Under the pieces are notes generated by a model, which worked only from the letters and a program-made list of their open reading frames with translations, did no database searches and was not told where the DNA came from. This document shows, piece after piece, positions 6,971 to 64,000 of a stretch of 64,000 bases of DNA. Position 1 is the first letter of the stretch, and each line of letters begins with the position of its first letter. This DNA is from a virus (taxonomy: Duplodnaviria > Heunggongvirae > Uroviricota > Caudoviricetes), in the IMG/VR virus record IMGVR_UViG_3300029841_000009, positions 4,544 to 68,543 of that record, one strand, 5' to 3'. The position numbers and the translations under genes were made by a program.

Positions 6971-6978
6971 TTCCTCTC

Positions 6979-9649: not shown

Positions 9650-9663
9650 TTCAATGACTCCGG

Positions 9664-10374: not shown

Positions 10375-10537
10375 GAATCACGCCTAAGGACCGTGATGCC
10401 AGAAGTTCCAGGTGCTTGGCGGTGATGGTTTCCCTTGAAGGACTATCACCACCCTTTTTACAGCAGGACGCCATTGCGATGACTTCATGCTGTAAACCAG
10501 TACAGCCACGGAAGGCATAACTCATTGCTTCCAGTTC

Positions 10538-10561
10538 GCCCGATTCGCCGGGCATTTTTTT
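10538..10561 (+). terminator. Rho-independent terminator downstream of the tRNA
   Basis: GCCCG-attcgc-CGGGC hairpin followed by ATTTTTTT. Confidence 0.5.
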
Positions 10562-10572
10562 AAGGTGAGATT

Positions 10573-10944
10573 ATGAACGACCAGCAAATCGAAAAAGAAA
10601 TCGTTGAGAAAGGCAAAACGGCACCGCGCGTTACGCCAGACCATATCGAAGGCATTATTGCTCAGGAGGCATATTTCACAGCAGAAGATGGTGCCTTTGG
10701 CAAAGCCATAAAAGAGAAACATACTGGCGGAGAGGTAAACTACCAGCCGCACGAATCACTTTCTCTGCTGACGTTCTGCGTCCTGGTGCTGCGCAACGGC
10801 TTCACCGTCACCGGAGAGAGCGCCTGTGCAAGCCCGGAAAACTTTGATGCGGAAATTGGTCGGAAGATTGCCCGGCAGAATGCTGTAAACAAAATCTGGA
10901 TGCTCGAAGGTTACTTGCTGAAGCAGAAGCTAAGCGAGCAATAA
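10573..10944 (+). CDS. Hypothetical moron protein (opposite orientation to the structural operon)
   Basis: 123-aa ORF with strong SD (AAGGTGAG) 4 nt upstream of the ATG; sits with the tRNA between TerL and portal on the opposite strand. Confidence 0.5.
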   Translation: MNDQQIEKEIVEKGKTAPRVTPDHIEGIIAQEAYFTAEDGAFGKAIKEKHTGGEVNYQPHESLSLLTFCVLVLRNGFTVTGESACASPENFDAEIGRKIARQNAVNKIWMLEGYLLKQKLSEQ

Positions 10945-11034
10945 CGCCGTGACATGTCACAATCAGCCAGCCTATGAGCTGGCTTTGTTTTATCCTCACC
11001 AGAGGATATCAGCAGCATTATCCCATCCAGCGGA

Positions 11035-12510: not shown

Positions 12511-13184
12511 TGATTGCCATCCTGACGTTCTTTCAGTCTCTTCCTGGCTGCCGCTATGCGATCAGCAATTGTCACATTCACATTAACATCCAGGCGTTCT
12601 TTGAATGCGTTGACGTCGACGTGCTTACCAATCAGTTCGAGGTTCTTCACCTTGTCAGGCCATTTAATTTTTTTGAGGATGCCAACCAGCTCTTTCTCGT
12701 CTCCACGGCCTTCGAACATGTCGGCCAGTTCGAAACCTGTCAGGTACTGCCGCCAGACCTTAGGCCATTCCGAGACCGGCTTGATGCTCATATCGTCGTT
12801 GAGAATGTCAATCACGTCCATCTGGTCGATCTCCACCAGGCGCATGAGAACGTAATCAGCACTGACGCGCATTCGTTTGTTGCGCTCCTCCATCAACTCG
12901 GCAATCCGTTTCTGAATGCGTTCATCGCGCATCATGACACTGGCTTTAACTGCCGCTGTATTTGGGGAGAATCCTGCATTAATCGCAGCCTGAGTCTGGT
13001 TTTCAGGCGTTTTGATGTATGACTGGCAATAAGCCTCCTGCATTGCTGTTAGTGGCTTAAATTGCGTTGATTTGCGTTTATAGGTTTTAGGTTCAGCAGG
13101 CATCATAACCACCGTGGTAATAGTTACCGTTGTGGTAATAGTACCATGCAAAATAAAGCCGCCATAGTTGGCGGCAGTATTCAA
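12507..13184 (-). CDS. Terminase small subunit (true start probably near 13106)
   Basis: Helical DNA-binding N-domain pattern (QEAYCQSYIKTPENQTQAAINAGFSPNTAAVKAS) of small terminases; the poly-Thr N-terminal extension in the ORF is probably untranslated. Confidence 0.65.
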   Translation of the reverse strand: MNTAANYGGFILHGTITTTVTITTVVMMPAEPKTYKRKSTQFKPLTAMQEAYCQSYIKTPENQTQAAINAGFSPNTAAVKASVMMRDERIQKRIAELMEERNKRMRVSADYVLMRLVEIDQMDVIDILNDDMSIKPVSEWPKVWRQYLTGFELADMFEGRGDEKELVGILKKIKWPDKVKNLELIGKHVDVNAFKERLDVNVNVTIADRIAAARKRLKERQDGNQ

Positions 13185-13224
13185 AACCCATCAAATTCAT
13201 CATGCATAACCCACTCGTGACATG

Positions 13225-13578
13225 TCACAATATTAATTTCGTTTCATGCCAGCCTTTAGTCACCCAGCATTGCGAGTCACCATTACACGGGCATGAATTC
13301 ACAGGAACTCTCTCGCCGCACTTACCGCAACGTTTTCTGCTGATCGATTTTATACGCCCGTGCACGCGCGCATCATCCTGGCGGATCAGTAACGCTATAT
13401 ACTCACCAAATTCGTAAGGCGCACGCCCGGGGCGACGTGTGGCACAGTTACGCTCCAGCATTTCAATTTCCTGAGCATCAAGCACAATCTCCAGCTTACG
13501 CACACCAGATGCAGCTTGTCTGGCTCTCTGAGCGGCTTTGCGCTCTGCTGCTGCCTTAGCCATTACCATATCCACCAA
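13225..13578 (-). CDS. Hypothetical protein with Cys-rich C-terminus
   Basis: 117-aa ORF upstream of TerS; CGKCG...CPC motif suggests zinc binding. Confidence 0.35.
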   Translation of the reverse strand: MVDMVMAKAAAERKAAQRARQAASGVRKLEIVLDAQEIEMLERNCATRRPGRAPYEFGEYIALLIRQDDARVHGRIKSISRKRCGKCGERVPVNSCPCNGDSQCWVTKGWHETKLIL

Positions 13579-13648
13579 ACTTCACCAGACATGATTCTCG
13601 CAATCACTATCATCACCAAAGTGATAATCACAACTTTAACTGGCGGCA

Positions 13649-14026
13649 TCATTCACCATCCTGCTCCGGCGGTTCTGGCAGCGGCATCCAGTGGGTTACC
13701 TCCTTGAGATACAGGTCTTCGCCACCACCGTCATCCCAAGTGGGCTTGCCATCATTAAACCAGTCGCCATATACGCCGACCTGAGTGTTGGGGATGCTTG
13801 GTGGGTAGTTGTTTTTAAAGTCAGCAGCTAACACATAGCATTGTCGCTCTCCCATTTCTGGCATTCGTTCACTACAGCTTATCCAACTCTCCGGAGTTAC
13901 CGGAGAGTTGCCAGCCTCATACGCCACACGCATCCAGTGCATAAGCGTTTCAGTGCTCACACAGCCGCAATCAACATCAATTTTGCCGTGCTGCTGTTCC
14001 AGCCATTGCTCAAGCGTAGTGCTCAT
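13649..14026 (-). CDS. DUF551-like protein
   Basis: C-terminal THWMPLPEPPE motif typical of lambdoid DUF551 proteins. Confidence 0.55.
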   Translation of the reverse strand: MSTTLEQWLEQQHGKIDVDCGCVSTETLMHWMRVAYEAGNSPVTPESWISCSERMPEMGERQCYVLAADFKNNYPPSIPNTQVGVYGDWFNDGKPTWDDGGGEDLYLKEVTHWMPLPEPPEQDGE

Positions 14027-14256
14027 TTTTCATCCCCCCGATGATGCCATCTGCATCGCATCTCATAACACCCCCACTCAACACGAAAACCACATAGCCT
14101 GTGCAGATCCACCCACTTCTGCGCCATCGCTGGCGACGTGTAAATCACAGTGAATGCGTTATCTTCGTTGTCGATTTGCGTAAACGTCACTTTGTACAAC
14201 AACCCACCGTCGACACATGCTGTGTTCAACGATTTATTGCTAATACCCTCAATCAT
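14023..14256 (-). CDS. Hypothetical protein
   Basis: 77-aa ORF coupled to neighbours. Confidence 0.35.
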   Translation of the reverse strand: MIEGISNKSLNTACVDGGLLYKVTFTQIDNEDNAFTVIYTSPAMAQKWVDLHRLCGFRVEWGCYEMRCRWHHRGDEK

Positions 14257-14900
14257 TCGTACTCACCCCCCGCTGTTTTGAATTTGATCTCCGCTGCCTG
14301 CAATGCGTGTTCGACGTCGAAGCGGTCCAGCCATCCACCAAAGTGGTGCGGCATCATTACCACCCGCTCACCGCTATTTATTGGGTGGCCCATACGGGGT
14401 TCGTAGCCGTCCGGTAACTCGACTTCCCGCGCTTCCAGTTCTGCTATGCGCTTCTCTGATGCTTCAAGTAACGCCTGCTTATCGCGTAGCGCTTCTTCCA
14501 GTTCAGCAACATGGCACTCACTATCAATAAGGTTGTTCTCTGCGGCTTCCAGCTCAACACGCAGCTTCCCTACCGTTAGCGCAATATCCTCGTTCTCTTG
14601 GTCGCGGCGTTTGATGTATTGCTGGTTTCTTTCCCGTTCATCCAACAATGCCAGCACGGTAACTGGATTGGCTGCGGCGATGAATTCAGCATTGGCCTGC
14701 TGTTCCATTTGGAAATCTTCATCGAAACCGCTTTCAGGATGCGCTCCTTCAATTCTGCAAATGGGAAGATATCCAACAACTTCACGATGAATTAGCGCAT
14801 CACCAGCATCAAATCTCTCCTCTCCATATTCTAGCGACCACACACCACACGTTGCTTTTTCTGCCTTAGCACGCAGTGCCTGGTAATTAATTTCGCTCAC
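14253..14900 (-). CDS. Ead/Ea22-like protein
   Basis: N-terminus MSEINYQALRAKAEKA and coiled-coil core LLDERERNQQYIKRRDQENEDIALTVGKLRVELEAAE, as in lambdoid Ead/Ea22 proteins. Confidence 0.55.
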   Translation of the reverse strand: MSEINYQALRAKAEKATCGVWSLEYGEERFDAGDALIHREVVGYLPICRIEGAHPESGFDEDFQMEQQANAEFIAAANPVTVLALLDERERNQQYIKRRDQENEDIALTVGKLRVELEAAENNLIDSECHVAELEEALRDKQALLEASEKRIAELEAREVELPDGYEPRMGHPINSGERVVMMPHHFGGWLDRFDVEHALQAAEIKFKTAGGEYE

Positions 14901-15137
14901 TGGCTGCCTCCTGCTTTTCTGCCTTCAACACCATGCGAGAACCATCATCCAGCTCCCACACTATCTCACCACCTTCAGCCATGACCAGTTGCCACACCAA
15001 TTGAGCAGCCTCATTGGTAACATCACGACCTGGATCATTGCCAACGCGCATACGTCCACCTTCAACATCGCGCATTTTTGCCAGCATGATAGTTTTTGAT
15101 AGCGGTGAAAAACCAAGCTGTAGTCGTGCTGAATTAC

Positions 15138-15764
15138 TCACTGGTTGCCTCCTTTGCGAAGCTGTTCCGCCCATTCTTCAAGGGATTTCTCCGCATATTC
15201 ACCGGACAGGCCATCAATCGGATGCGCTTCATTAACCAACTCTTCTTTCGCTGACAAAATCATGCGTGTAACGTCGAAAACTTCACGCAAAGACTTATTG
15301 ATAAATCCGTGATTGAACGCAGCAGCAAGACGGCTGGCGGTATAGTTAATCCCCTCGTTGCGTGCTTCCGCACGAATTTCAGCCAGAAAAGCATCGGTAG
15401 CTGGAGTTTCGCTGTGGTGTAGGGCATCATTGATAATCATTGCAGCAACACCAGCCTGCCCTGCATCCGTGACCGACACATGCTCAAGAGTTACGGCCAT
15501 TGCGTGTTTCAGTCCGTCGTTCTCCACCACCAGCGCAGCGAGATTAGTCTCATACTCCGCAATTCGGCACATAGCATCGATATTTGTGTCCTCCAGCCGC
15601 TTAATTTCATCCAGTAGCGCCAGCACAACCTGCGGTGTGACCTTCATACGAAACGCGAGCAATTTTTGCGGCGTTGCCACGACTTTTATTGCTTCTGCTG
15701 CCTCACGCAGTGCCTGGTAATTAATTTCGCTCACTGGTTGCCTCCTGAATACGCTTAAACTCAA
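15138..15764 (-). CDS. Ead/Ea22-like protein (paralog)
   Basis: Contains SEINYQALREAAEA; its 3' ~250 bp is near-identical to 63750-64000. Confidence 0.5.
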   Translation of the reverse strand: MSLSVFRRQPVSEINYQALREAAEAIKVVATPQKLLAFRMKVTPQVVLALLDEIKRLEDTNIDAMCRIAEYETNLAALVVENDGLKHAMAVTLEHVSVTDAGQAGVAAMIINDALHHSETPATDAFLAEIRAEARNEGINYTASRLAAAFNHGFINKSLREVFDVTRMILSAKEELVNEAHPIDGLSGEYAEKSLEEWAEQLRKGGNQ

Positions 15765-22166: not shown

Positions 22167-22835
22167 ATGGAGTCTCGACAAATGACTATCTCTGTAGGTA
22201 TTTTCAACGGAAAAGGCGGCGTAACCAAATCAACAATTGCCCGTGCTTTAGCAGTTGCTTATGCAAAGGCTGGCTGGAATGTATGCCTGATCGATATGGA
22301 TGTGCTTAACGGAACGGTAACGCGTTGGGTACAACGCAGAATGGCCAACAATATCGAACCAGCAATCGCGGCGCAGCCGTGCGGCACACCATCACAAGTC
22401 CAGAAAATCATCGAATCAGAAGTATACGACCTGGTTATCGTCGATGGCGGTGCCTACGCATCTGAATCAGTACCGAAGCTCTCTGAATTTCTGGATATGG
22501 TTATTTTGCCAACCAGATTCTCTACCGATGACCTGGAAACCACCGTTAACACAGCTCACGGCATCGTTAAAAAGGGTGTACCAATCAAGAAAATTTGCAT
22601 GGTGTTTTCCGGCGCGGCTGAAAACGAAGCTGACTATATTGAAGCCCAAGAGTACCTGGCTAATACGCCATACTTTGTTGTCGATAAGTACATTCCCCAC
22701 AAGCCAGCTCTGAGCAAAGCTCAGGATAAGGGCTTAAGCCTTATTGAGTGCTCATACGTTGCGCCACGCAAAAAGGCAGACGATGTTATCCAGGGGATTA
22801 TCAATCAGCTTGAGGCTCTGACTACTGCCGCGTAA
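22167..22835 (+). CDS. parA: ParA/Soj-family partition ATPase (start possibly 22182)
   Basis: Deviant Walker A GIFNGKGGVTKST; about 220 aa, typical small ParA; GGAG SD 9 nt upstream of the second ATG. Confidence 0.8.
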   Translation: MESRQMTISVGIFNGKGGVTKSTIARALAVAYAKAGWNVCLIDMDVLNGTVTRWVQRRMANNIEPAIAAQPCGTPSQVQKIIESEVYDLVIVDGGAYASESVPKLSEFLDMVILPTRFSTDDLETTVNTAHGIVKKGVPIKKICMVFSGAAENEADYIEAQEYLANTPYFVVDKYIPHKPALSKAQDKGLSLIECSYVAPRKKADDVIQGIINQLEALTTAA

Positions 22836-30485: not shown

Positions 30486-31334
30486 TTAATGTTGGAGTGA
30501 TTTCCAGGTCTTTCTTAACCTGTTATAACGCTGCTCAACGAGGGATCGTAAATATGCAAGGTCAGCACCAGGATACATGCCATCAGCAAATTCCTGACTA
30601 ACCTCTCTGGTGATTTGATGACGAAGTTCGGCCTCTCCCTTTTCCCGAACAAGACGCGCAGCTCTCTCCGCTGCTTTCTGTTTTGCCTTTATCTCTCTGG
30701 CCGTCTTCCTCTGACGCCATACATTCTCCATCTGCTCCTGAATAACAATACGCTTATAATCAGCCTCCGTTATCGCTTTTTTAAGCCGTTCGCTATTCTT
30801 CGCATTGAAGTAATTAAGTTTCTGGCTAACCGCACGTCTCCATGCTTGTTCAGTAATACCAACGGTTTCCAGCAGTTGATCACGAATCTCTATTTTCGCT
30901 GGCCAATACTGTTTATTCACCCGATCCCAGCGACGTTCATAATCAATAAAACCTAACGCTTTCAGTTGCGACAACGCCCTTGTACAGCGCGTTATAGACT
31001 TGTTCCCAGCTTCGGATACGGTAGACAGGCCGCAAAAATCAGCCAACGCCTCAGCACTAGCCAGAACCCGCTTAGAAATGATGTTTACATGGTGCAAAAT
31101 CGCAGCGATCACAGCATTAATCGCCCGACGACGATGCTCGTTTATCCGGCGCTTCCGCTCTGACGGTTGATTAACGTAGAACGCAACCTCACACGTAAGA
31201 TCACGCCCATTAATGCGCTGTAAAGCATCAGATAACACCAGCGGCAGCTTGTGCGTATGGTGCTTTGGAGGCTGGAACTCCGGCGACAAATTACAAACGT
31301 AAGCTGAACGTAGAGACGGCATTGGTCTATCCAT
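30486..31334 (-). CDS. repA: IncFII-type replication initiator RepA (ORF extends to 31466 but likely starts at MDRPMPSL)
   Basis: Segment KSITRCTRALSQLKALGFIDYE and basic C-terminus resemble IncFII RepA1; the upstream in-frame extension overlaps an antisense promoter/terminator. Confidence 0.75.
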   Translation of the reverse strand: MDRPMPSLRSAYVCNLSPEFQPPKHHTHKLPLVLSDALQRINGRDLTCEVAFYVNQPSERKRRINEHRRRAINAVIAAILHHVNIISKRVLASAEALADFCGLSTVSEAGNKSITRCTRALSQLKALGFIDYERRWDRVNKQYWPAKIEIRDQLLETVGITEQAWRRAVSQKLNYFNAKNSERLKKAITEADYKRIVIQEQMENVWRQRKTAREIKAKQKAAERAARLVREKGEAELRHQITREVSQEFADGMYPGADLAYLRSLVEQRYNRLRKTWKSLQH

Positions 31335-31378
31335 ATGTTCGCTCTTGCGTCCACGGAAAACCAACGTATAATGGGAGT

Positions 31379-31460
31379 TGTCGAGGCGCCCATGGATTGT
31401 TGTTGTTGGTTTTCCGTGGATGTCGCAAGAAGCCCGCAGATTTATCTGCGGGCTTTTTGT
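31379..31460 (+). ncRNA. CopA-like antisense RNA candidate opposite the repA leader
   Basis: Plus-strand promoter TTGCGT-16 bp-TATAAT (31345-31372), stem-loop, and terminator GCCCGCAG-attta-TCTGCGGGC-TTTTT (31430-31458). Confidence 0.35.
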
Positions 31461-31502
31461 TTCCATATCTGGTCACTTTCCAACCAGACACCCACAATCA
31501 TA

Positions 31503-47746: not shown

Positions 47747-48835
47747 TTAATTTTTATCGCGGTTTTTAAATACTGACCCAATAACATTTTTTACTACTTC
47801 AGCTTGTTTATCTCCGTTGTTTTCTGGTTGATTAACATCAACTGAATCATTCACCTCATTTGCGTCTTCTTGCCGTTGATTAAGAAAGTTTTTGTTACGC
47901 GCTCGCTCTGCATTCATAATTTCCAAAGCAAGTTCAGCCGCAGAAACTCCCGTTTTGAATTTTGCATTCTTAACCAGGTCGTCATGACCTGGAATCACGC
48001 TATTCTCGATTGTTTCAATGCGCTCGCGTTCTGATTTAACGCCCTCGTCTTTACCAGCATTAAAAACCTGATTGTATAATTCTGGATGTTTATTTTTTAA
48101 TTCATCAAGAGTCACAACATCGTCCTCATTTTGTTCATTTAATTCAGTAGATAATTCATTTTTATTTTGTGGCAACTTTGCGAGCGAATCAGGTAATTTT
48201 GAAAACCTTGATGCTTCAAAAGTTATTCCATTGAGCGAAAGCATCCCTTCCTTTATAGAAGCGGATAAGCGCATTGGTTTTTCAACTTCGTCAGCAAATC
48301 CAAGCTCTACAGCCTCTTCTGCATTTAGCCATGTTTCCTGATCCATTAGTTCAATTAATTTATCCTCAGAAAGCCCTGTTTTCTCCTTATATGCAGATAA
48401 AATACTATCTCGTATCTTATCCATCATCTCAGCAATATCACGTAGTTCATCCGCATCACCAGCAGCAAATGTCCACGGATTATGGATCATCATCATAGCA
48501 TTAGATGGGATAACAACTTTATCACCTGCCATTGCAATAATGGTTGCAGCCGATGCAGCAATACCATCAATATAAACAGTAATATTAGCCTTATGACGTT
48601 TTAATGAAGAAAGAATAGCTTGAGCAGTAAAAACAGAACCACCATAACTATTAATTTTTACGTTGATAGCATTTGATGATATATCCTTTAATTTATTAAC
48701 TATGTCAGAAGAAGAAACCTCATCAAATTCGCCAATATATCCGTAGATTAAAAGTTCAGCCGGAGAGTCATCTTCACCCGTGCTATTTTTTATTTCCCAC
48801 CAATTAGGCATCATCTGTCTCCATATTTTGTTCAT
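47747..48835 (-). CDS. Head maturation protease (S49/ClpP-like, lambda gpC-like)
   Basis: 362 aa; ClpP-like core YGYIGEF...INSYGGSVFTAQAI...IDGIAASAATIIAMAGDK. Confidence 0.75.
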   Translation of the reverse strand: MNKIWRQMMPNWWEIKNSTGEDDSPAELLIYGYIGEFDEVSSSDIVNKLKDISSNAINVKINSYGGSVFTAQAILSSLKRHKANITVYIDGIAASAATIIAMAGDKVVIPSNAMMMIHNPWTFAAGDADELRDIAEMMDKIRDSILSAYKEKTGLSEDKLIELMDQETWLNAEEAVELGFADEVEKPMRLSASIKEGMLSLNGITFEASRFSKLPDSLAKLPQNKNELSTELNEQNEDDVVTLDELKNKHPELYNQVFNAGKDEGVKSERERIETIENSVIPGHDDLVKNAKFKTGVSAAELALEIMNAERARNKNFLNQRQEDANEVNDSVDVNQPENNGDKQAEVVKNVIGSVFKNRDKN

Positions 48836-50625: not shown

Positions 50626-52482
50626 CTATATGGTTACGCCTTTACTTATAACTCTACGGCGTCTTCTACGTATACCTGACGAGTTCTGCACATACACATT
50701 ACCTCGCATTTCCTGTTCGGCAAGCCAGTTAAAATTAGGGTTCAGAATTTCCATCGCGGCAGTTGCATAGTTACGGCAATCAAGAGGCTCGTTACGCTCG
50801 TAGACTTTCACCCACTTTTCTTTTGTCTGCCCATTTTTATATTCAAATATTTTCTTCTCTGATAATAATCCTTTAAAGTATTCGGTATCATATCCTCTGT
50901 CAGAATCTAATGGGAAATGCATATAACCAGGACCAGGATCATGTAGTTTAATTCTTGCCATGATGGTCCCTTTACCATCATCAACCCCCAAATTAAACAA
51001 CATAGCACCCACACGGTTATTATTACTTGGCTTTCCTATAAATGGTAAACCTACCCCACCACGCCCCCTGATAGAGTATATTCGCCTTGATTCTCTCGGC
51101 TTAGTAAAGCGATATACCTCTGTCGTAAAATGCCCACCAGAGTCAATACAAACGGAAGAAATCTGTAATTTTCGACCGTCACGGAATGACCAGCTACGGA
51201 GTAAGTATTCATCAAGTTGTTTCCAGACAACATCTTGTGCGGGATCACCTGGGAATATTTTATATTCTATCCCCCATGACTCCTTACCTTTTCCCCAACC
51301 GACCAATTCACAAACTAAATACGTGTCCTGTACGTCAACACCAGCACTTAACAATAAAACATCATCTGGTAAAAACTCTTCAAACCTTATTCTGCGTTGC
51401 AACAAGTATTCAGGATCGATATCGTCTTTAGCATCCTCTTTCCATGGCTCACCCAGCTTAAGGTTAATAAACTCCATTAATCCATTTTTATCGCGGTTTC
51501 TGGTTGCTTCCGTAAATTCTTCAACCAGCTCTGACAATGCAACCCACGGGGAGTAAAGACTGTTAATATGAAAACCAACAATACCTTTAACTCCAGTATG
51601 TTCAGCTATCCATACCCCCTTCGCCAACCAATCAACGTCTGGTTTACCAGATCCGCGCATAATCCCGCCGCACTCACAGCACTCATATCTGGCCGTTTCC
51701 GGTAACGCCTCACCTGAATCGCTCTTATCCCATCTGACTTGCGACCATTTCATCACCTGCATGGTGCCACAACATGGGCAAGGAACATGGTAGTAACGCT
51801 GATCGGAGAGCTTAAACCACTTGTGGATTTTGCTCGTTTCCTCCAAAACAGGAGTAGAAACAAAAACTTTCTTACGATTATGAAAGTTGGTAGTACGCTG
51901 AATACCTAGTTTTAGTGGGTCGCCCTCCTGCGTCACACCGTAACGATCAATCTCATCAGCTAACAGTATTCGAATTGGCCTGGATGCAAGACCTGCTGGG
52001 GAATTAGCACCAACAAGTGCTATATATCCACCAGCGTAATGCTTCATACGTATAGTCGTGCTGGACTTTTTGGCTGCACCGCGCCCCTCTTTCCCTTCAT
52101 GCAGCTTGTGTTTCAAACCAGGGGAATATTTGAACGTCGGATCAATACGCTCTTTTGAAAAAGCCTCAGCCGCCTCTACCGTTGGATAAATCATCAACTG
52201 AGGAGATGGCTCCTGATCTGCAAAGTAACCCATAACATTTAGCTGTAATTCGGATTTACCAATTTGCGAGCTACATTGCATCACTACTGTTTCTGTATCA
52301 GCGTCACCAATAACATCCATTGGTTCACGCAAATATGGCACTCGGCTTGTACGCCACGGCCCTGGCTCTGGAGACGTTCCCGGCGCTACATGACGATACT
52401 TATCAGCCCATTCGGAAACAGTTAGCCGTGATTTAGGGCGAAGCGCACGGAAAAAAGCGGTGCTCCATACTGTTTCGCCCAT
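50626..52482 (-). CDS. Terminase large subunit (GpA-type)
   Basis: 618 aa with Walker-A-like QCSSQIGKSE; Cys-rich segments VPCPCCG and CCECGG; lambda gpA-like size. Confidence 0.85.
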   Translation of the reverse strand: MGETVWSTAFFRALRPKSRLTVSEWADKYRHVAPGTSPEPGPWRTSRVPYLREPMDVIGDADTETVVMQCSSQIGKSELQLNVMGYFADQEPSPQLMIYPTVEAAEAFSKERIDPTFKYSPGLKHKLHEGKEGRGAAKKSSTTIRMKHYAGGYIALVGANSPAGLASRPIRILLADEIDRYGVTQEGDPLKLGIQRTTNFHNRKKVFVSTPVLEETSKIHKWFKLSDQRYYHVPCPCCGTMQVMKWSQVRWDKSDSGEALPETARYECCECGGIMRGSGKPDVDWLAKGVWIAEHTGVKGIVGFHINSLYSPWVALSELVEEFTEATRNRDKNGLMEFINLKLGEPWKEDAKDDIDPEYLLQRRIRFEEFLPDDVLLLSAGVDVQDTYLVCELVGWGKGKESWGIEYKIFPGDPAQDVVWKQLDEYLLRSWSFRDGRKLQISSVCIDSGGHFTTEVYRFTKPRESRRIYSIRGRGGVGLPFIGKPSNNNRVGAMLFNLGVDDGKGTIMARIKLHDPGPGYMHFPLDSDRGYDTEYFKGLLSEKKIFEYKNGQTKEKWVKVYERNEPLDCRNYATAAMEILNPNFNWLAEQEMRGNVYVQNSSGIRRRRRRVISKGVTI

Positions 52483-52487
52483 GAGGT

Positions 52488-53048
52488 TTATTCTTCCTGC
52501 TTAATAAATCGGGATTCCTGGAGCGCCTGAAGCGCAAAATTAATCTCGTCTTCAATAATGCGTTCGATCTCCCTGGCTGTTTTGCCTTCACAACGGGGAG
52601 CTGCTCTTGGAGCAATACTAAATAAGCGGCTACGCAATTCATTAGCTGCCAGAAATGCATCATCCCTGACCGCATCTTTAGCGATGAGAGAGCCTTCCTT
52701 TTCTTCAAATTCAAGGCGTTTCAGCTTTGCCTGATAAATTTTTTCTGCGGTCTTAGCCTTGTTGAATTGCACCGCAACACCGGAAGTACCACCAGCTAAT
52801 CCGGCATCATCAGCGGGTAACTCTGGTTGTTCCGAAGATATCCCATGCCCTCTTTTTCCATTTTCAGCAGATACCTCACGACCAACCTGTCGGCTCGCTT
52901 CATAAGCCGCACTGGCTTTATCAAAATCCAGCTTGCCGCTTTTCAGCACTGGAATGCGACCGGAACGACAGAGCTTCGTAACCATTGCCGGAGAAATACC
53001 TTTCCGGCGAGCAAACTCTGACTTACTGACGATGGCCATTACTTGCAA
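52488..53048 (-). CDS. Terminase small subunit (HTH-containing; start possibly 53039)
   Basis: N-terminal HTH (SKSEFARRKGISPAMVTKLCRSGRIP); directly upstream of TerL. Confidence 0.55.
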   Translation of the reverse strand: MQVMAIVSKSEFARRKGISPAMVTKLCRSGRIPVLKSGKLDFDKASAAYEASRQVGREVSAENGKRGHGISSEQPELPADDAGLAGGTSGVAVQFNKAKTAEKIYQAKLKRLEFEEKEGSLIAKDAVRDDAFLAANELRSRLFSIAPRAAPRCEGKTAREIERIIEDEINFALQALQESRFIKQEE

Positions 53049-53629
53049 CCATTAGCAAGATACTGAACAAATCCCTCATGCGTTTCATGCGCGTCGTGGT
53101 ACTGACGATAAACATCCAGCAACAATGCAATTTCCATATCCGTCGCGGGAATACGTTCTTTATCAATAGCCAGGTACTTAATTTGAACAACAGGGGAAGA
53201 ATTATCGTCTTCTTCCTGCGGCTGTTCATCGCTTAACATTTCGTCAAGCTCTGCATCATTAAACCCAAGCAGATCAATATCAAAATCATCATCCATTAAC
53301 TCTTTGACTTCTTCGGCCAGAAGCTGCATATCCCAGCCAGCATTTAAGGCCAGCTTGTTATCTGCAATCCTGTAAGCCTTCTTCTGTTTTTCAGAAAGGT
53401 TACTCAACCGAATCGCCGGAACTTTATCCATTTCCAGAATTTCGGCTGCTGCAAGCCGACCATGCCCCGCAATCAGTTCATTCTTTTCATCGATCAGCAC
53501 AGGATTAGTGAAACCGAACTCACGGATACTGTTCACCAACTGTTCAACCTGCTCATCTGAATGAGTCCGTGAATTTTTGGCGTATCTGAGCAGCTTACCG
53601 ACTGGTAAATATTCGATTTTTAGAGCCAT
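53039..53629 (-). CDS. ParB-like nuclease domain protein
   Basis: ParB/Srx N-domain motif LIAGHGRLAAA; paralog of 56296-56919. Confidence 0.65.
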   Translation of the reverse strand: MALKIEYLPVGKLLRYAKNSRTHSDEQVEQLVNSIREFGFTNPVLIDEKNELIAGHGRLAAAEILEMDKVPAIRLSNLSEKQKKAYRIADNKLALNAGWDMQLLAEEVKELMDDDFDIDLLGFNDAELDEMLSDEQPQEEDDNSSPVVQIKYLAIDKERIPATDMEIALLLDVYRQYHDAHETHEGFVQYLANGCK

Positions 53630-53639
53630 TTTTTAACCG

Positions 53640-54000
53640 CCATAACACAACAGGTTAAAGAAAACTGTTTAACTTATTGATACTAAAAGAGAAAAATGAC
53701 GATCTTTTTACTCATAAAAAATCACACAAACCAGCATAATCATCTGATTTTATTAAGTTTTTATAAGTAAAAAGGATCTTGAGATGGTGTTTTGGTTAAA
53801 AGATTGGATGTATTTGCATGATTTATAACGATTTTTATCAGAACAACATCACATTGGTTAAAGATCTGCGCGTATCTTGATGATCTAAAAGAAAATTTTC
53901 TACTTTCTTTTTACCAGCACAAATACAGCAAAAAATCACGTTTTCCCGATATTTTTCAATGAGATGAGTAAATTTCTTTTACCGCAACTTTTAACCTAAC
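53640..54000. repeat. AT-rich region with direct repeats TGGTTAAA(A)GAT (candidate cos/pac or late-promoter region)
   Basis: GGTTAAAG at 53652, 53794, 53856 and inverted TTTAACC at 53989; GATCTTGA repeated. Confidence 0.35.
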
Positions 54001-54186
54001 TTTTTTCACGTTTAGCTAGCCGAACATCGGGGTTCGAATGACCCGCATCCAACGCTTTTGTCCAGAAGGACCCAATTCTGCCGGACGATGAAACGATGCT
54101 CGTGCACCCCCACAGACAGCCAGCGAGCGACGCTACAGAACACAGTGAATACACTCTGCATAACAACACCATCAACCACACGATGA

Positions 54187-54906
54187 TTAACGAGAGAAGG
54201 TCTTGGAAAGAATGTCATCAATAGCCTTTGTGACTTCATCAGCAAACGCATCCTCACCAGCACGCAGCGCCACGCCATGCCAATCAAGACGCTGCGAATA
54301 GTTAGGTTGCTGGATAAACGTAAGGATCAACGTAGGACGCCGCCCAACGCGCTGCCAGACGCCTGGTTGAAGCGGGTTACTTGTACCAGGTCGAACAACA
54401 AAAAACTCCGTAGGCTTGCCCTGACGGCGATTTTGATGCGCATCTCGCTGAACTCTTAGGCCAGATAAGACCTGCTGTAATTGCCCCCGCGAAATATTCC
54501 CGTATTTGTCCAGCTTTGCGCCGGGACCAGGAGCAATCTGCCAGCCGTTAGGCAAATATCCACCAGCCCTTAGCGCCCCTTCTGAGCGTTTGTACTGTCG
54601 TTGGCCACCTTCGATTTGCGGAGTCAACGTTACAGGGGCTGGCGTTCCTCCCCATTCACGAGCATACACAATGGCTGTAGGATCACTCTTCTTTGCGGCC
54701 AAAACGTAAGTAGAGTTCTGAATCCACGGCGTGGGCCTGTCAAATACCCGATTAATTTCATTCTTAATCGCAGCCTGAGAAGCCTTTGCCGTTCTGGTTG
54801 CCGCAAGCGCCATTGCGAACGGCAATTCGCGTTCTTCAAGGCGCTGGAGTTGTCGTTGAATATCCTGAGAAGAAAAATCCATCTTTATCTCAATTCTGTC
54901 AGCCAC
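54187..54906 (-). CDS. Hypothetical protein
   Basis: 239-aa ORF between the ParB-methyltransferase gene and the AT-rich region. Confidence 0.4.
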   Translation of the reverse strand: MADRIEIKMDFSSQDIQRQLQRLEERELPFAMALAATRTAKASQAAIKNEINRVFDRPTPWIQNSTYVLAAKKSDPTAIVYAREWGGTPAPVTLTPQIEGGQRQYKRSEGALRAGGYLPNGWQIAPGPGAKLDKYGNISRGQLQQVLSGLRVQRDAHQNRRQGKPTEFFVVRPGTSNPLQPGVWQRVGRRPTLILTFIQQPNYSQRLDWHGVALRAGEDAFADEVTKAIDDILSKTFSR

Positions 54907-54922: not shown

Positions 54923-56302
54923 CTACTTAATCAACGGCCGGAAAGCCGCCAGCACATCATCAGATCGTCCGATTGTTGAACCACCAGGCAACGGCAACTC
55001 AAACTCAAAACGAACAGCTTTCTCCAGACTCGCCCAACTAAGGGAATCATCGTTAATGACGTGCAAATACCAGCTCTTACAGTTGAATATTGACCGCTTA
55101 ATCCTGAAACCATGTACACGACACAACTGCTTCACTTCCTCATCAGAGTGAAACTTCTGGTAAAACCAGTGCCCCTTCCGGTACAACGCGGTAAAACCGT
55201 CATGATCAATAAAATAAAGCCGGCTTTTGGAACTCGCCGCTTGTGTTTGCTTCAGGACTGTTTCCAGTTCTCCACGGCTACGGCCAGAAAAGAATATTGA
55301 CCCACCAGCTTTACACAGGCCTTTCAGAACCGTCAGAACGGACCATTCAGCCTCGACACTATCGACCGAGTTCAAAACGCTATCGCAAATCACGTAGTCG
55401 TAACGCCCTCGCGTTTTTAAGTCGTCCACCAGCGTATCAATCATCCGGTTTGTTGCGGCCCTATCCAGAGTGTTTCCAGCGCCCTTACGGCGGAAAAGCT
55501 CGAGATCATGCAGGTTATATCCCTTTGCCCTGAGCATTCGCGCGTAGTCTCCCTGCCCCGAACCAAAATCAATTCCTCTTGGCGTCTTGGCAATGATCGG
55601 GAGGATCAACGACTCATACAGATTTGATTTCAGGCTGCCACCATTACGCAACCGCATAAGCTGCGCATACGTCTGGATGTATGTTGTTTTCTCCAGATGA
55701 GAATACTCAAATACACCATAAGTTTTATTCAGATAACTTTGGTATTTTTCCTTCTCAACATCAGGGATCACAAACACCGTTAGCGGTGTGCGCGTCATTT
55801 TCGCTGCTAATGCATACTGAGCACAGTGAATAACCTCACCAGACTGAGTAGCAACACAACCACCCCACGGACCATACTTGATAACCAGTTCCGCTATGTT
55901 CTTTCGAACATATGCCATTTTCGCGCGCATATTGCCTGAGATCTGGCTTGCCGATACCTGAACAAAACCATGCTTATCTTCCAGACCGGACACCCTGCAA
56001 CGCTCATCTCCGCTATCAAAATCCGTTCCGTTATGCAGTTGGTTAAACCGTACTTCGTCGTATACCGTCGTTTCACAGGGCAACACATACACCGCAGCAC
56101 GCGTTATTCCCAACTTACGTAGCGCCTTCGTCCTTTGGTGTCCCGCCACCAGCAAATCGCCGCGCACTATCAATGGCTTCACAAGCCCCAGCTCCCTGAC
56201 GCTTTCCGCCAGCCTCGCAAGATCATCCTCACCGATAAAACGCGGGTTATATTCCGCGCCGCGTAGGTGCGTTATGTCGTAATTGAGGTGAAGCATCAGC
56301 AC
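54923..56302 (-). CDS. ParB-like N-domain fused to class I SAM-dependent methyltransferase
   Basis: N-terminal ParB/Srx motif LVAGHQRTKALRKLG; C-terminal motif I IDFGSGQGDYARML and post-I DYVICDSVLN. Confidence 0.65.
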   Translation of the reverse strand: MLMLHLNYDITHLRGAEYNPRFIGEDDLARLAESVRELGLVKPLIVRGDLLVAGHQRTKALRKLGITRAAVYVLPCETTVYDEVRFNQLHNGTDFDSGDERCRVSGLEDKHGFVQVSASQISGNMRAKMAYVRKNIAELVIKYGPWGGCVATQSGEVIHCAQYALAAKMTRTPLTVFVIPDVEKEKYQSYLNKTYGVFEYSHLEKTTYIQTYAQLMRLRNGGSLKSNLYESLILPIIAKTPRGIDFGSGQGDYARMLRAKGYNLHDLELFRRKGAGNTLDRAATNRMIDTLVDDLKTRGRYDYVICDSVLNSVDSVEAEWSVLTVLKGLCKAGGSIFFSGRSRGELETVLKQTQAASSKSRLYFIDHDGFTALYRKGHWFYQKFHSDEEVKQLCRVHGFRIKRSIFNCKSWYLHVINDDSLSWASLEKAVRFEFELPLPGGSTIGRSDDVLAAFRPLIK

Positions 56303-56919
56303 ACCTCCCCAGCCAGCAATGCGGATACAAATCCGATATAGCTGCCATTATCATCAACATAACGAGACACCGCGCAGTCAAAACGATCCGCTTCCTCATC
56401 CGTTGCCGGGATTTTATGACCTCCAAATGACAGGTACTGAACTTTTACGCCTGATTTGGCCTCATCCTTCTCAAATGGGATATCCATACCCTCTGTGTCA
56501 TCGTAGACTGCCGCACTCAATAAGTTATCCAGTTCGCGCTGAGTAAAACCAATTGAGTCCAGAGCAAAATCATCGGCCGCAAGATCTGCAAGCTCCGCGC
56601 TTAACAACTCTTCATCCCAACCAGCATTCAGCGGAATACGGTTGTCGGCCAGACGATATGCCTTCTTCTGATTCTCCGTTAGCCCAGCCAGAACAATGCA
56701 GGGAACATCATCCATCCCCAACTGAGTGGCCGCAGCAATTCGACCATGACCAGCAATTACAACGTTGTTCTCGTCTATCAGGATCGGATTAGTCCATCCG
56801 TACTCCTGTATGCTGGCAACAATCTGATCTACCTGCTCCACGGAGTGTGTGCGAGCGTTCTTTTCATAACCAATCAACACAGAAAGTGGTAAAGAAACCA
56901 CATTAAGATGTTTTGTCAT
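56296..56919 (-). CDS. ParB-like nuclease domain protein (paralog)
   Basis: VIAGHGRIAAA motif; shares architecture and the C-terminal IPATD segment with 53039-53629. Confidence 0.65.
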   Translation of the reverse strand: MTKHLNVVSLPLSVLIGYEKNARTHSVEQVDQIVASIQEYGWTNPILIDENNVVIAGHGRIAAATQLGMDDVPCIVLAGLTENQKKAYRLADNRIPLNAGWDEELLSAELADLAADDFALDSIGFTQRELDNLLSAAVYDDTEGMDIPFEKDEAKSGVKVQYLSFGGHKIPATDEEADRFDCAVSRYVDDNGSYIGFVSALLAGEVC

Positions 56920-58793: not shown

Positions 58794-58911
58794 CGGGTTA
58801 TCTCCGGTTTAACCAGGGCGGGTATCGCTCGGTTTCGGGTATAACCATAGGAAATTTTTTCCCACCTGTAAAGCACTTTTATATAAATCTATAATTATAT
58901 AATTCTATACC
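58794..58911 (-). promoter_or_regulatory. Conserved promoter-leader cassette, copy 3
   Basis: -35 TTTACA (58872-58867), 17 bp, -10 TATGGT (58849-58844), leader with GGAG SD; AT-rich iteron 58877-58911. Confidence 0.5.
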
Positions 58912-59492
58912 ACTTGCCAGAGAGCATCATGCAACTGGATACTTCCATTGCACTGGTTGCCCCAGCCATGCCAACCATCAGGTAAATCACCGCGAGCAAA
59001 CAGCTCAATACGAGGAACATCACCTAACAGCCTTACCAGCTTGTCACGAACCACATCAGGCTTCCGAGAATGCTCCAGACGAGGCGATGTAAACGACTGA
59101 ATGATCCCCGCATCAAGGCGGGTCGGCAATTTGCCTTTTACCGCAAACAAGCAATCTTCACTGTTTGCACGAGTCATATGCCCCATCCCCATCACCAGCT
59201 TATCTGGTTGTCGGCTACCACATTTGTTCCATGTGAAGCCCTTCATGGTCATAAGCCTGAATCCCCATGCTTTCACCACCAGCAACGCTTCTTCTGGCTG
59301 AGTCGGAACCCACCACATGGCCAACAAACACGATTCAGGATTAGCAAGCTGCCAGACAGGAATACGAGCAATATCCTCAGCTTTCATCGTTGGATACTTA
59401 AAACCAGCTCCACGATTCCCATCCTTACACTTATCTTTGTATTCCCAGGGGGGATCTGCATAAATCAGATTAAACAATGCAATTGCCTCCAT
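58905..59492 (-). CDS. MT-A70 family DNA adenine methyltransferase
   Basis: N-terminal LIYADPPWEY (DPPW catalytic motif); 195 aa. Confidence 0.75.
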   Translation of the reverse strand: MEAIALFNLIYADPPWEYKDKCKDGNRGAGFKYPTMKAEDIARIPVWQLANPESCLLAMWWVPTQPEEALLVVKAWGFRLMTMKGFTWNKCGSRQPDKLVMGMGHMTRANSEDCLFAVKGKLPTRLDAGIIQSFTSPRLEHSRKPDVVRDKLVRLLGDVPRIELFARGDLPDGWHGWGNQCNGSIQLHDALWQVV

Positions 59493-59800: not shown

Positions 59801-59876
59801 TGGTGGCCCCTACCGGATTTGAACCGATGACCGTGCGATTATGAGTCGCCTGCTCTAACCACTGAGCTAAGGGGCC
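59801..59876 (-). tRNA. tRNA with CAU anticodon (tRNA-Ile2-like, or Met)
   Basis: Minus-strand read GGCCCCTTAGCTCAGTGGTTAGAGCAGGCGACTCATAATCGC...GGTTCAAATCC...GGGGCCACCA; close to my recollection of E. coli ileX in acceptor, D and anticodon arms. Confidence 0.8.
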
Positions 59877-61840: not shown

Positions 61841-62158
61841 TCACAGTAGTGCAGAAAAGAATAGCGGCTTAACTGCTTTCCTCACCTCACTAGCGTACAT
61901 CCCCGCAGCTATCTCAGTTGTGAACAAACGCCCTCCAACTAGCCATGCAACAGGTGCAGATGCCAGGGATGCCAGTGCAATTTCATCTGTAGCAAGCTCT
62001 CTTTCAAGATATTCACGAAATCCGGGGTTAATAGTTACCGTATCCAACATTCTCTGGCGCGCTTCCTTACGTTCACGAATATGGGCAATCAATTGCTCTT
62101 TGGTAAAAGTAGCCATATCACTTTCCTTTCCCATGAAGCATAGCCGCGCGGCAGGCAT
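61841..62158 (-). CDS. Hypothetical protein (probable start at MATFTKEQ, 62116)
   Basis: Contains the LASLASAPVAWL motif shared with the 62118 gene. Confidence 0.35.
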   Translation of the reverse strand: MPAARLCFMGKESDMATFTKEQLIAHIRERKEARQRMLDTVTINPGFREYLERELATDEIALASLASAPVAWLVGGRLFTTEIAAGMYASEVRKAVKPLFFSALL

Positions 62159-62492
62159 TCCAGCCTCTCACCTCTGCAATAGCGGCAACAGCATCAACCG
62201 CGTACATGCTAAGAGGATTAGGCATTGGTTTTTCTTCCGGTACTACTGGCACTGGAGGGGTGGCGTAGAGTGGAACTCCTCCCCCTCCACCAGAAAATTC
62301 ATTGCGAGCGTTATACTCACGACCATCTGCGTCATCACGCATCCACGCCACCGGTTCTGCTTCCAGCGATGCAAGTGCAATTCGTGCCAGTTCTTCCGCT
62401 TCTTCTGCTGGCAGTACAACGTTGCTATCAGGTCCGTATGTTTCGCGCCACTGCTTGATTGTCAGCAGTCGCTCTTTGGTAATAGTGATCAT
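62118..62492 (-). CDS. Hypothetical protein
   Basis: 124-aa ORF with LASLEAEPVAWM motif. Confidence 0.35.
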   Translation of the reverse strand: MITITKERLLTIKQWRETYGPDSNVVLPAEEAEELARIALASLEAEPVAWMRDDADGREYNARNEFSGGGGGVPLYATPPVPVVPEEKPMPNPLSMYAVDAVAAIAEVRGWNACRAAMLHGKGK

Positions 62493-62848
62493 GCCGTATC
62501 CCCTTCTTGATATTTACCGTACCACCAACCATCAGCATTTTTTTCCAGCTCGATGAAAGCTTTTTTATGTCCTGAAGGTATAACCACATCCCCAAACTTT
62601 TTAGTTACTGAGAATGTCCCTCTGCTTGCACCAGACATCTTTGCACCCTTTTCATCCGAGGTTGGCATCACCCTGATCTGCCTGTTTTCCTCATCCAACT
62701 CAACGAAAATAAATCGACTGTTCGATCTGACATCAACTCCGATATAGCACTGCACAGATCCTGATTTTGAATATCTAACGGATATTCCTGCCGTGTCACG
62801 CTTGCGACCTCTGCCACCAGTTATGATTGATACAAAAGCCATACTCAT
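62489..62848 (-). CDS. Hypothetical protein
   Basis: 119-aa ORF coupled to neighbours. Confidence 0.35.
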   Translation of the reverse strand: MSMAFVSIITGGRGRKRDTAGISVRYSKSGSVQCYIGVDVRSNSRFIFVELDEENRQIRVMPTSDEKGAKMSGASRGTFSVTKKFGDVVIPSGHKKAFIELEKNADGWWYGKYQEGDTA

Positions 62849-63531
62849 TCCCCCTTCACGCCAATGCCAGCGGCGCGCTCGGCTTTACTTTGTTCCCAAA
62901 ACCACTTGTGAAGCTCCATAAGCTTTTCGTCAATCGGTGCATATTTGCGATTAAAGTAGGCCTGAGCATCTTTCTCAGATTCGTCCGGCAATTCGCCTGG
63001 GCCAAACAGTGTGTTATAAATCCATGCCAGTCCGCTCTTAGCGTCGCCAGTTGCCTGCCATTCGATAATCGCAGCCTGCATGACCAGAATGTTTTTCCCG
63101 ATTAACAGGTCCAGTTCTTTGTACCGGTTGCGGATGTATGCATTCTCGCTTTGTAATTTTGCGTTGCGCTTCTCTGCGGCTTCCAGCTCAACACGCAGCT
63201 TCCCTACCGTTAGCGCAATTTCCTCGTTCTCCTGGTCGCGTGATTTGATGTATTGCTGGTTTCTTTCCCGTTCATCCAGCAGCGCCTGCACTACTTCAGG
63301 GTTGAAAGCTGCGATATAACGAGCGTTGTTCTCTGCGTTTTTCTGTTCGTCGAATCCTGGCCAGTCGACAATATCTCCGTGATGATTATCACCTGGTGTG
63401 TGTACGGCGTACGTGCCGTATTTGCCCGGCGAAATAAATGCGACCCATTCACCCTGTGTTGCCTTTTCTGCCGCATCACGCAGTGCCTGATAGTCAATTT
63501 TGCTCATTGTGCCTCCTCGATTTCGTCCCAT
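62845..63531 (-). CDS. Ead/Ea22-like protein (probable start at MSKIDYQALRDAAEKA, 63507)
   Basis: Shares MS.I.YQALR.AAEKA and the coiled-coil core LLDERERNQQYIKSRDQENEEIALTVGKLRVELEAAE with 14253-14900. Confidence 0.5.
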   Translation of the reverse strand: MGRNRGGTMSKIDYQALRDAAEKATQGEWVAFISPGKYGTYAVHTPGDNHHGDIVDWPGFDEQKNAENNARYIAAFNPEVVQALLDERERNQQYIKSRDQENEEIALTVGKLRVELEAAEKRNAKLQSENAYIRNRYKELDLLIGKNILVMQAAIIEWQATGDAKSGLAWIYNTLFGPGELPDESEKDAQAYFNRKYAPIDEKLMELHKWFWEQSKAERAAGIGVKGE

Positions 63532-63737
63532 TCCACCCAGGCATTCTCTCCATCAGCATCGATTTCACCTTTGTGACCGCATTTGGAACAGACAGCCTCA
63601 TCACCCGCCCACAAAGAATCTTTGGTTACCGACCATCCTGTTACCTTGGCTTTGCCGTGCTGGCACTTAGGGCAATCATCAAGCCATTCGACTTCGACTG
63701 TTGAAGGACCAAATCCATGTTCAGTTCGGATGCTCAT
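63504..63737 (-). CDS. Small zinc-ribbon-like protein (start at MSIRTEHGF, 63737)
   Basis: Two CxxC pairs (CPKCQ, CSKCG); ATG overlaps the stop of the upstream Ead-like gene. Confidence 0.4.
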   Translation of the reverse strand: MSIRTEHGFGPSTVEVEWLDDCPKCQHGKAKVTGWSVTKDSLWAGDEAVCSKCGHKGEIDADGENAWVEWDEIEEAQ

Positions 63738-64000
63738 AACTGAACTCCTTTGCGAATCTGTTCCGCCCATTCTTCAAGGGATTTCTCCGCATATTCACCG
63801 GACAGGCCATCAATCGGGTACGGTTCATTAGCCAACTCTTCTTTCGCTGACAGAATCATGCGCGTAACGTCGAAAACTTCACGCAAAGACTTATTGATAA
63901 ATCCGTGATTGAACGCAGCAGCAAGACGGCTGGCGGTATAGTTAATCCCCTCGTTGCGTGCTTCCGCACGAATTTCAGCCAGAAAAGCATCGGTAGCTGG
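63734..64000 (-). CDS. Ead/Ea22-like protein, C-terminal part (gene runs off the right edge)
   Basis: Near-identical at DNA level to the 3' end of 15138-15764; stop TGA at 63734-63736. Confidence 0.5.
   Translation of the reverse strand, partial: PATDAFLAEIRAEARNEGINYTASRLAAAFNHGFINKSLREVFDVTRMILSAKEELANEPYPIDGLSGEYAEKSLEEWAEQIRKGVQL

Follow-up and report, generated by a model that had tools for sequence, protein, structure and literature searches.

We analysed a 64,000-nucleotide stretch of phage DNA (positions 4,544 to 68,543 of the IMG/VR virus record IMGVR_UViG_3300029841_000009; "the window" below), and this article concerns its interval 53640-54186, a gap just upstream of the packaging genes. 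In our opinion, with a probability of roughly 85%, this interval is a cos site of the lambda type, belonging to a temperate phage with a lambda-like head and a contractile tail, which is kept as a plasmid of 47-49 kb. The site would comprise four parts: cosQ, cosN (with ends of 12 nt), a spacer like I2 of lambda, and an array resembling cosB, in which GGTWAAA(A)G occurs in both orientations over about 360 bp. All its elements were read on the minus strand, which is the orientation of the packaging genes. Such a site is nothing unusual in kind; we found no published description of the lineage of myovirus phage-plasmids that carries it. Its central elements are the following.

54067-54073, minus strand: cosQ-like heptamer GGGTCCT, the sole copy in the 64-kb window on both strands.
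54028-54048, minus strand: cosN core, a 21-bp block (ATGCGGGTCATTCGAACCCCG) invariant in four enterobacterial lineages, which includes a fragment resembling a tRNA T-arm.
54032-54043, minus strand: predicted 12-nt 5' cohesive end GGTCATTCGAAC, between nicks at 54044|54043 and 54032|54031.
54000-54031, minus strand: I2-like interval from cosN to the first repeat, A-rich (CCCGATGTTCGGCTAGCTAAACGTGAAAAAAG), with a conserved CTAGCT at 54014-54019.

The strongest evidence comes from the points at which the genomes of relatives end. A search of phage records returned three Yersinia pestis phages of 49 kb, vB_YpM_41, 39 and 44, which are 98-99% identical to the window. The records of vB_YpM_41 and vB_YpM_39 end in ...GTTGGATGCG (GATGCG) and start with GGTCATTCGAACCCCG... 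(GGTCATTCGAAC), so that the break corresponds to 54044|54043; the vB_YpM_44 record ends in ...GATGCGGGTCATTCGAAC (GGTCATTCGAAC) and starts with CCCGATGTTCGG... (CCCGATG), which places its break at 54032|54031, exactly 12 nt on. Two breaks 12 nt apart in sibling phages are the pattern expected of assemblies of filled-in 12-nt cohesive ends.

The same positions recur at greater distance. Among the Vibrio myophages, the records of PVP-XSN, R20L and XM1 are opened at the homologous CG|GGT, that of R19R 10 nt later and those of X29 and phi 2 11 nt later; the Rostov 7 record is not opened at cos and the joined site can be seen in it. XM1 carries GGTGCTCGCGAC at both ends, a 12-nt terminal duplication, the right copy of which is followed by an A that resembles a remnant of A-tailing. 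X29 was reported to have defined ends, unlike a permuted phage sequenced in the same study. Distant metagenomic contigs were gathered by a profile search with the small terminase (TerS), and seven such IMG/VR contigs, whose large terminase (TerL) is 53-58% identical, start at the homologous GGT. In an eighth, IMGVR_UViG_3300045988_067343, bases 1-21 are the tail of an Illumina read-2 adapter (AGACGTGTGCTCTTCCGATCT) joined directly to the left end GGTGCGCGCCACCCCG. This junction is an assembly artefact that marks a physical end of double-stranded DNA; a sibling of this contig starts 10 nt later. Taken together, the end positions agree to the base in 13 or more independent records or contigs. 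Both boundaries are used and the overhang sequence occurs at both ends, which fits filled-in 5' overhangs rather than 3' ones; the protruding ends are thus probably of 5' polarity.

The sequence-only reading of this DNA had suggested a cos or a pac site of a phage with a lambda-type head. The first half of that suggestion is strongly supported by the ends, the geometry described below and the terminase of the GpA family. A pac site for headful packaging would also be at home immediately upstream of terminase genes, but it sits badly with end positions shared to the base among relatives, with the defined ends of X29 and with a TerL of the GpA (cos) family, and we consider it highly improbable.

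Both ends of the lambda and N15 sequences were compared with the window and its relatives. A common template describes them all: GGGTCCT, 22-25 bp ending in CG, a nick, GG and 10 further bases, a second nick, C(G/C)C(G/A) and, further on, CTA. From the heptamer to the left nick there are 23 bp in the window, exactly as in lambda, N15 and XM1, and the heptamer is also present, at a spacing of 22-25 bp, in Vibrio, Bradyrhizobium and Azotobacter relatives. Since all the sequences fit one template, we regard the site as a divergent homologue of the cos of lambda. The left nick, CG|GG, fits the rule of a 5'-CG-3' flank in lambda-type cos sites. The I2-like interval shares 10 of 18 bases with lambda bp 13-30 when compared position by position, including TT..GCTA, and its CTAGCT is invariant in the enterobacterial alignment. 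The lambda heptamer GGGTCCT at bp 48473-48479 is what we take to be cosQ, in keeping with its conservation between lambda and N15; this identity reportedly goes back to Wieczorek and Feiss (2001). The twofold symmetry of cosN (GCGGG-N10-CCCG) would have suggested a stagger of 14 nt, which was set aside, as the record ends give 10-12 nt.

The fragment GGGGTTCGAATGACCC, which had been noticed as T-arm-like, does exist, at 54029-54044 (one base away from the position first given), and it is the centre of the invariant cosN block and not a relic of a tRNA. It is true that GGTTCGAAT resembles a T-psi-C loop, and a remnant of a tRNA gene or of an attachment site left by integration could look like this. 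Yet neither ARAGORN nor Rfam (E up to 10) finds a tRNA there, the flanks are unable to form a T-stem, and the sequence, unchanged in all relatives, is placed inside the element and falls on the virion genome ends. Phage-homologous DNA continues uninterrupted across the site, from 15718 to 61843. Hence the attachment-site proposal has to be rejected, and the chance that the fragment is such a remnant is negligible in our eyes.

Conservation follows the same outline. The intergenic regions of four enterobacterial lineages in IMG/VR are about 67% identical to each other (83% for one pair). Against this background, invariant blocks are concentrated at 54075-53987, namely TTGGGTCCTTC (54075-54065), AGCGTTG (54056-54050), ATGCGGGTCATTCGAACCCCG (54048-54028), CTAGCT (54019-54014) and TTAGGTTAAAAGT (53999-53987); beyond 53987 the blocks GATCCT, AATCAG and GTAAAAAGATC are invariant as well, and to the right of 54075 there is no conservation. 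Relatives could be recovered from IMG/VR and from GTDB genomes with the pattern GCGGGT-N7-ACCCCG-N8-CTAGCT; no relative came out of a scan of GTDB genomes that used TerS. The sole other DNA match, Pasteurella phage Pmp13, has unrelated terminases and was dropped.

A side observation concerns five genome loci at which the cos core (GGGTCC, then the pattern just given) stands without cognate terminase genes: two in Bradyrhizobium (L073, L075), and one each in metagenome-assembled genomes of Competibacter (L077), of a gammaproteobacterium (L072) and of Xanthobacteraceae (L076). The core is followed by McrBC at L073, preceded by a D5_N/DUF5906 primase at L077 and by a capsid-protease fusion at L072. 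At L076 it is followed by a ParB_N-methylase fusion and a Terminase_4-type TerS, and such a fusion also follows the cos core in one IMG/VR contig (L062). By analogy with phage-inducible chromosomal islands (PICIs; PMC9026076), the terminase-less cores may be cos-hijacking satellites or remnants.

On the terminase side of cosN, the interval carries an array of short repeats.

53987-53999, minus strand: first repeat, the R3-equivalent, TTAGGTTAAAAGT; invariant in all 20 distinct enterobacterial sequences.
53977-53983, minus strand: copy GGTAAAA; position conserved in relatives.
53909-53915, minus strand: copy GGTAAAA within CTGGTAAAAAGAAAG; conserved in one lineage, degenerate in two.
53855-53865, plus strand (opposite to the R3-equivalent): copy TGGTTAAAGAT; inside 90 bp that are absent from vB_YpM_44.
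53793-53804, plus strand (opposite): copy TGGTTAAAAGAT; relatives have TTTTTACTC at the aligned place, which is GAGTAAAAA on the other strand.
53701-53778: conserved inverted pair GATCCTTTTTAC ... GTAAAAAGATC around AATCAG; both arms contain a GTAAAAAG variant of the repeat and a Dam GATC (the conserved GATC pair is at 53701-53705 and 53774-53778).
53652-53662, plus strand (opposite): copy AGGTTAAAGAA; kept as TTTAACC or TTTTACC in relatives.
53632-53638, minus strand: GGTTAAA over the ribosome-binding region and start of the ParB/Srx-like gene; a doubtful site, not conserved in relatives.

The direct repeats that had been proposed from the letters are partly as described: TGGTTAAAGAT is exact at 53855-53865 and TGGTTAAAAGAT lies at 53793-53804, while the supposed copy at 53652, AGGTTAAAGAA, is degenerate with two mismatches. 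The inverted copy is present, CTTTTAACCTAA at 53988-53999. A second repeated sequence, GATCTTGA, occurs exactly only once (53775-53782), its other copy being TATCTTGA. In 2000 dinucleotide shuffles of the 405 bp that separate the cos nick from the start of the ParB-like gene, GGTTAAA was expected 0.13 times and GGTWAAA 0.26 times; the observed counts of five and seven were reached in no shuffle, although the motif was picked after having been seen, which makes the P values indicative only. Elsewhere in the window GGTWAAA has a density of 0.47 per kb, and an 11-mer form of the motif with two mismatches is not enriched window-wide (29 found, 22 expected). GATC is present four times against 0.86 expected (P about 0.009). 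The blocks of the inverted pair at 53773-53778, 53744-53749 and 53701-53711 are invariant in the four lineages, which otherwise differ by a third of their bases; Rfam matches to microRNAs at 53697-53780 are noise from the AT-rich inverted repeat.

The R3-equivalent occupies +45 to +57 from the left end, and every lineage examined has its own GGTWA-type motif at +47 to +58. In the Vibrio phages the motif is GTTAACAC (GTTAACA), with five direct copies in 127 bp; a Methyloprofundus prophage has six copies of GTTAACA, Bradyrhizobium and Xanthobacteraceae have three to four of GGTTGAC, and metagenomic lineages have GGTAACA, GGTAACC or AACCAGTT/AACTGGTT. Judged by these motifs, the repeats are a family-wide feature with a lineage-specific sequence, as cosB is among lambda-like phages. 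They stand on the terS side with the first copy at a fixed distance from cosN, as expected of a cosB, and this agreement is one of sequence pattern. With genome ends of relatives at the site itself and repeats kept in position, rather than ends elsewhere and repeats without conservation, the outcome favours cos.

The setting of the site among its neighbours is as follows.

54187-54906, minus strand: gene for a PHROG-1924 protein, upstream of the gap.
54074-54186, minus strand: variable, GC-richer spacer from the stop of the upstream gene to cosQ; rightward of about 54075 it is not conserved in the lineages of 67% identity.
53039-53629, minus strand: gene for a protein with a ParB/Srx N-terminal domain (Pfam ParB_N, PHROG 620), the first after cos.
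52488-53039 (to 53048 with a TTG start), minus strand: small terminase gene, TerS (PHROG 57, E 7e-42).
50626-52482, minus strand: large terminase gene, TerL, of the GpA family, with ATPase and endonuclease (Pfam GpA_ATPase 7e-76, GpA_nuclease 1e-84).

Downstream of TerL follow genes for a gpW-like adaptor and a lambda-family portal, and then head genes and contractile-tail genes. The site therefore lies, within a string of minus-strand genes, next to a GpA-family large terminase gene, as lambda-type cos sites do. That the gap of about 550 bp is AT-rich and free of credible open reading frames had been recognised from the sequence and is borne out: at 53630-54186 the longest frames inside are of 33-61 amino acids with GTG or TTG starts, and GC is 25-34% over 53600-54000 (it rises to 51-56% over 54000-54150). 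In the listed E. coli records, RefSeq annotates nothing in the interval except one 'hypothetical protein'.

Which protein would read the repeats? In our opinion the small terminase is the best candidate, with the repeats as its cosB-like array. Residues 4-35 of TerS can be aligned with residues 3-33 of gpNu1, in its DNA-binding region (hhalign E 0.003, probability 10.5%); TerS also resembles PHROG 575, a Cox-like helix-turn-helix family (6.9e-5), its matches to Pfam helix-turn-helix families are below their cut-offs, and no PDB sequence match was found for it. Lineages with GGTTAAA have GISPAMVTKL as the putative recognition helix, and GRSHVWV(K/S)(K/R)L stands in its place in both of those with GTTAACA. 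The latter two lineages differ in the C-terminal part of their ParB-like protein, which so does not track the motif. The order cos, ParB-like, TerS, TerL is common to the Vibrio phages X29 and XM1 and the Methyloprofundus prophage, but not to all lineages: the motif is kept where terS directly follows cos, or where the ParB-like gene comes after terL. The tracking of motif by helix, together with gene order, favours TerS as the reader.

By homology with lambda, TerS would bind the repeats through its N-terminal helix-turn-helix and thereby anchor the GpA-type TerL on cosN of concatemeric or plasmid-derived DNA. TerL would then make staggered nicks, CG|GG at 54044|54043 and, 12 nt on, 54032|54031, leaving a 5'-protruding GGTCATTCGAAC. 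The DNA would presumably be packaged toward decreasing window coordinates, and the next cos would be cut with the help of cosQ, for which the heptamer is the candidate.

Several observations weigh against this reading. The fixed ends are known from relatives and not from the molecule in the window. The Yersinia records are labelled circular and we found no paper describing vB_YpM_39, 41 or 44, and hence their start points are taken as assembly ends. Among the Vibrio and metagenomic records the right boundary is at 10, 11 or 12 nt, and a distance of 12 is seen only in the Yersinia pair and XM1. The right nick, AAC|CC, is followed by CC and not by the CG conserved in lambda-like phages, and the cohesive end GGTCATTCGAAC is identical to GGGCGGCGACCT of lambda in 3 of 12 positions. 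The similarity of TerS to gpNu1 is weak at the hhalign probability given above and is not accompanied by a Pfam Phage_Nu1 match, and the covariation of helix and motif rests on two motif states. No conserved site for integration host factor (IHF) was found between the first repeats; the single match to WATCAANNNNTTR, at 53670-53682, stands some 350 bp away from cosN and is not kept in the L011/L044-type lineage. Finally, the AT-rich array is about three times longer than the cosB of lambda, and vB_YpM_44 lacks 90 bp of it (53816-53905), including the 53855 copy and two GATC sites. A deposited phage isolate thus does without this stretch, which makes it dispensable, and part of the array may do something else.

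Indeed, one may suppose that only the GC-richer core (54028-54073) is cos and that the AT-rich 53640-53985 mainly serves the transcriptional control of the packaging and head operon, as an activator-dependent late promoter or an operator with GGTWAAA or GTAAAAAGATC as the sites of a regulator. The excess length, where Vibrio relatives manage with 127 bp, would be explained in this way, as would the dispensable 90 bp and the presence of the conserved inverted pair, with its Dam sites, at 70-150 bp before the first gene, and AT-rich upstream regions are typical of promoters. Nevertheless, a scan of both strands of 53400-54400, which covers sigma-70-type sites and not activator-dependent promoters, found zero sigma-70-like promoters and zero intrinsic terminators, against 2.2 and 1.0 in shuffles. 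Holins, an endolysin, methylases and ParB-like proteins are encoded upstream on the same strand, with no terminator, and hence read-through of cos by late transcription, as in lambda, would be sufficient; the holins and the endolysin are seen in the plasmid copy. Because the repeats begin at the fixed R3 position beside cosN in every lineage, a packaging role fits them better than a promoter role. The late promoter with activator sites that the sequence-only reading had offered thus gained no positive support, and we consider the control region unlikely, though worth keeping in mind.

The nature of the element itself invites another explanation. The interval is present in 72 of 5,426 complete E. 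coli genomes, in 71 of them on plasmids of 47-49 kb and in one on the chromosome, on which basis we call the element a phage-plasmid; near-identical genomes have been deposited as Yersinia pestis phages. The plasmids (e.g. p48, NZ_CP023368.1, L079) carry an IncFII-type RepA, a ParA, an XRE repressor and a RelE/ParE toxin-antitoxin pair. An assignment to the group of the phage-plasmid pSLy3 proved wrong, as pSLy3 belongs to the SSU5 supergroup. On a plasmid, short AT-rich repeats beside a gene with a ParB N-terminal domain could serve as a centromere (parS) or as an origin of the iteron type, with the ParB-like protein encoded next to them as the binding partner. Such a function is, however, very improbable: the IncFII-type RepA (30486-31466) and the ParA (22167-22835) are 22-31 kb away, the ParB-like proteins have the ParB/Srx N-domain only and no ParA adjacent to them, lytic or temperate relatives that are not plasmids (X29, XM1) and metagenomic phages show the same repeat layout, and the motif persists where no ParB-like gene separates cos from terS. 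No iterons were found next to repA, as expected for an IncFII-type replicon.

Even if the site is a lambda-type cos, two aspects go slightly beyond the ordinary. One is the very deep conservation of the cosQ-cosN geometry; the other is the array beside the ParB/Srx-like gene, which has an unusual length, is rich in AT, can in part be dispensed with and contains a conserved inverted pair of sites with Dam GATC. It is tempting to speculate that the ParB/Srx-type protein and its two paralogues upstream of cos are a third, cos-associated packaging factor. Possibly a clamp that depends on nucleotides, or else a nuclease, the protein would load onto the long AT-rich array of GGTWAAA and GTAAAAAGATC, and cleavage of cos or protection of its ends would be coupled to the plasmid lifestyle, so that the array would be more than a lambda-style cosB. 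We regard this combination as a long shot. As separate observations, three paralogous genes with the ParB/Srx N-domain bracket cos (53039-53629, 54923-56302 and 56296-56919), one of them fused to a methyltransferase domain, and an MT-A70 methyltransferase gene lies at 58905-59492.

At 64 kb, the whole window exceeds the plasmid of 48 kb, and its order is permuted with respect to vB_YpM_41. Positions 1-14000 represent the late region of a lambdoid prophage that is common in chromosomes; they are 97% identical to many E. coli chromosomes and hold a T7-type portal at 7970-9649, a tRNA-Arg(TCT) at 10298-10374 and a small subunit of the Terminase_2 family at 12507-13184. Ead/Ea22-like genes occur twice (14253-14900 and 62845-63531). 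Flanked by 1-15718 and 61843-64000, the phage-plasmid appears to have recombined, or formed a cointegrate, with a lambdoid prophage. The phage-plasmid part has a tRNA with a CAT anticodon at 59801-59876, called Met by ARAGORN; its counterpart in p48 is annotated as tRNA-Ile in RefSeq.

As regards the literature, the papers on the Vibrio myophages X29, phi 2, vB_VpaM_XM1 and Rostov 7 describe no cos site, and a full-text search for the cohesive-end strings returned unrelated papers only. The present analysis gives an exact packaging site and predicted cohesive ends for a phage-plasmid lineage that also infects Y. pestis, which is of use for orienting genomes, for judging transduction potential and for building cos vectors.

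It remains to compare the site with known systems, with the description of lambda cos in PMC4669245 and PMC9026076 as the framework. What is the same as in lambda is GGGTCCT 23 bp before the CG|GG nick, a stagger predicted at 12 nt, an A/T-rich interval with TT..GCTA after the end, a first repeat of the small-terminase type near +45 to +50 with further copies in both orientations, terS and terL of the GpA family downstream, and lysis genes upstream on the same strand. We presume R3 of lambda to lie at about bp 51-66 (read from the lambda sequence), close to which the first repeat of the window falls. The repeat motif of the window is, on the other hand, unrelated to the R sites, its array measures about 360 bp against about 120 bp, its cohesive end shares 3 of 12 bases, its right nick has CC, and an IHF site between the first sites is missing. 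The window also differs in the ParB/Srx-like gene between cosB and terS, in its contractile tail and in its plasmid prophage. The distance between cosN and R3 is critical (PMC9026076), and cosQ is a 7-bp element highly conserved among lambda-like phages (PMC4669245), from whose large terminases the TerL of the window is far removed at about 28% identity (27.5% for N15).

N15 has cosQ, the 23-bp spacing, a plasmid prophage and a GpA terminase in common with the window. In contrast, its cohesive ends are lambda-like (10 of 12 bases), it has a 'simple' cosB with a single critical R site (PMC4669245), its plasmid is linear with a telomerase, and 89 bp separate the end from its terS. The Vibrio myophages (X29, phi 2, XM1, R19R, R20L, PVP-XSN, Rostov 7) are the nearest isolates outside the enterobacterial group, with a TerL that is 63-65% identical; they share the order cos, ParB-like, TerS, TerL and homologous cosQ, cosN and CTAGCT, and are opened at homologous nicks. 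They differ in the repeat (GTTAACAC, five direct copies in 127 bp) and in the cohesive end GGTGCTCGCGAC.

The PICIs keep a cosQ and cosN of the helper type and differ in cosB (PMC9026076, PMC6739421), a modular logic like the one seen across the lineages here; they are satellites without a terminase of their own, whereas the element in the window encodes a complete TerS and TerL. The cosQ-cosN geometry of lambda (GGGTCCT, 22-25 bp, CG|GG) survives in phages with a GpA terminase whose TerL is about 28% identical to the lambda-like ones, and it spans Enterobacteria, Vibrio and Bradyrhizobium, including the cos cores in alpha-proteobacterial genomes, while the sites for the small terminase vary by lineage. 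Such a template could serve to predict genome ends in uncharacterised phages and to flag cos-only islands, possible satellites, beside defence genes.

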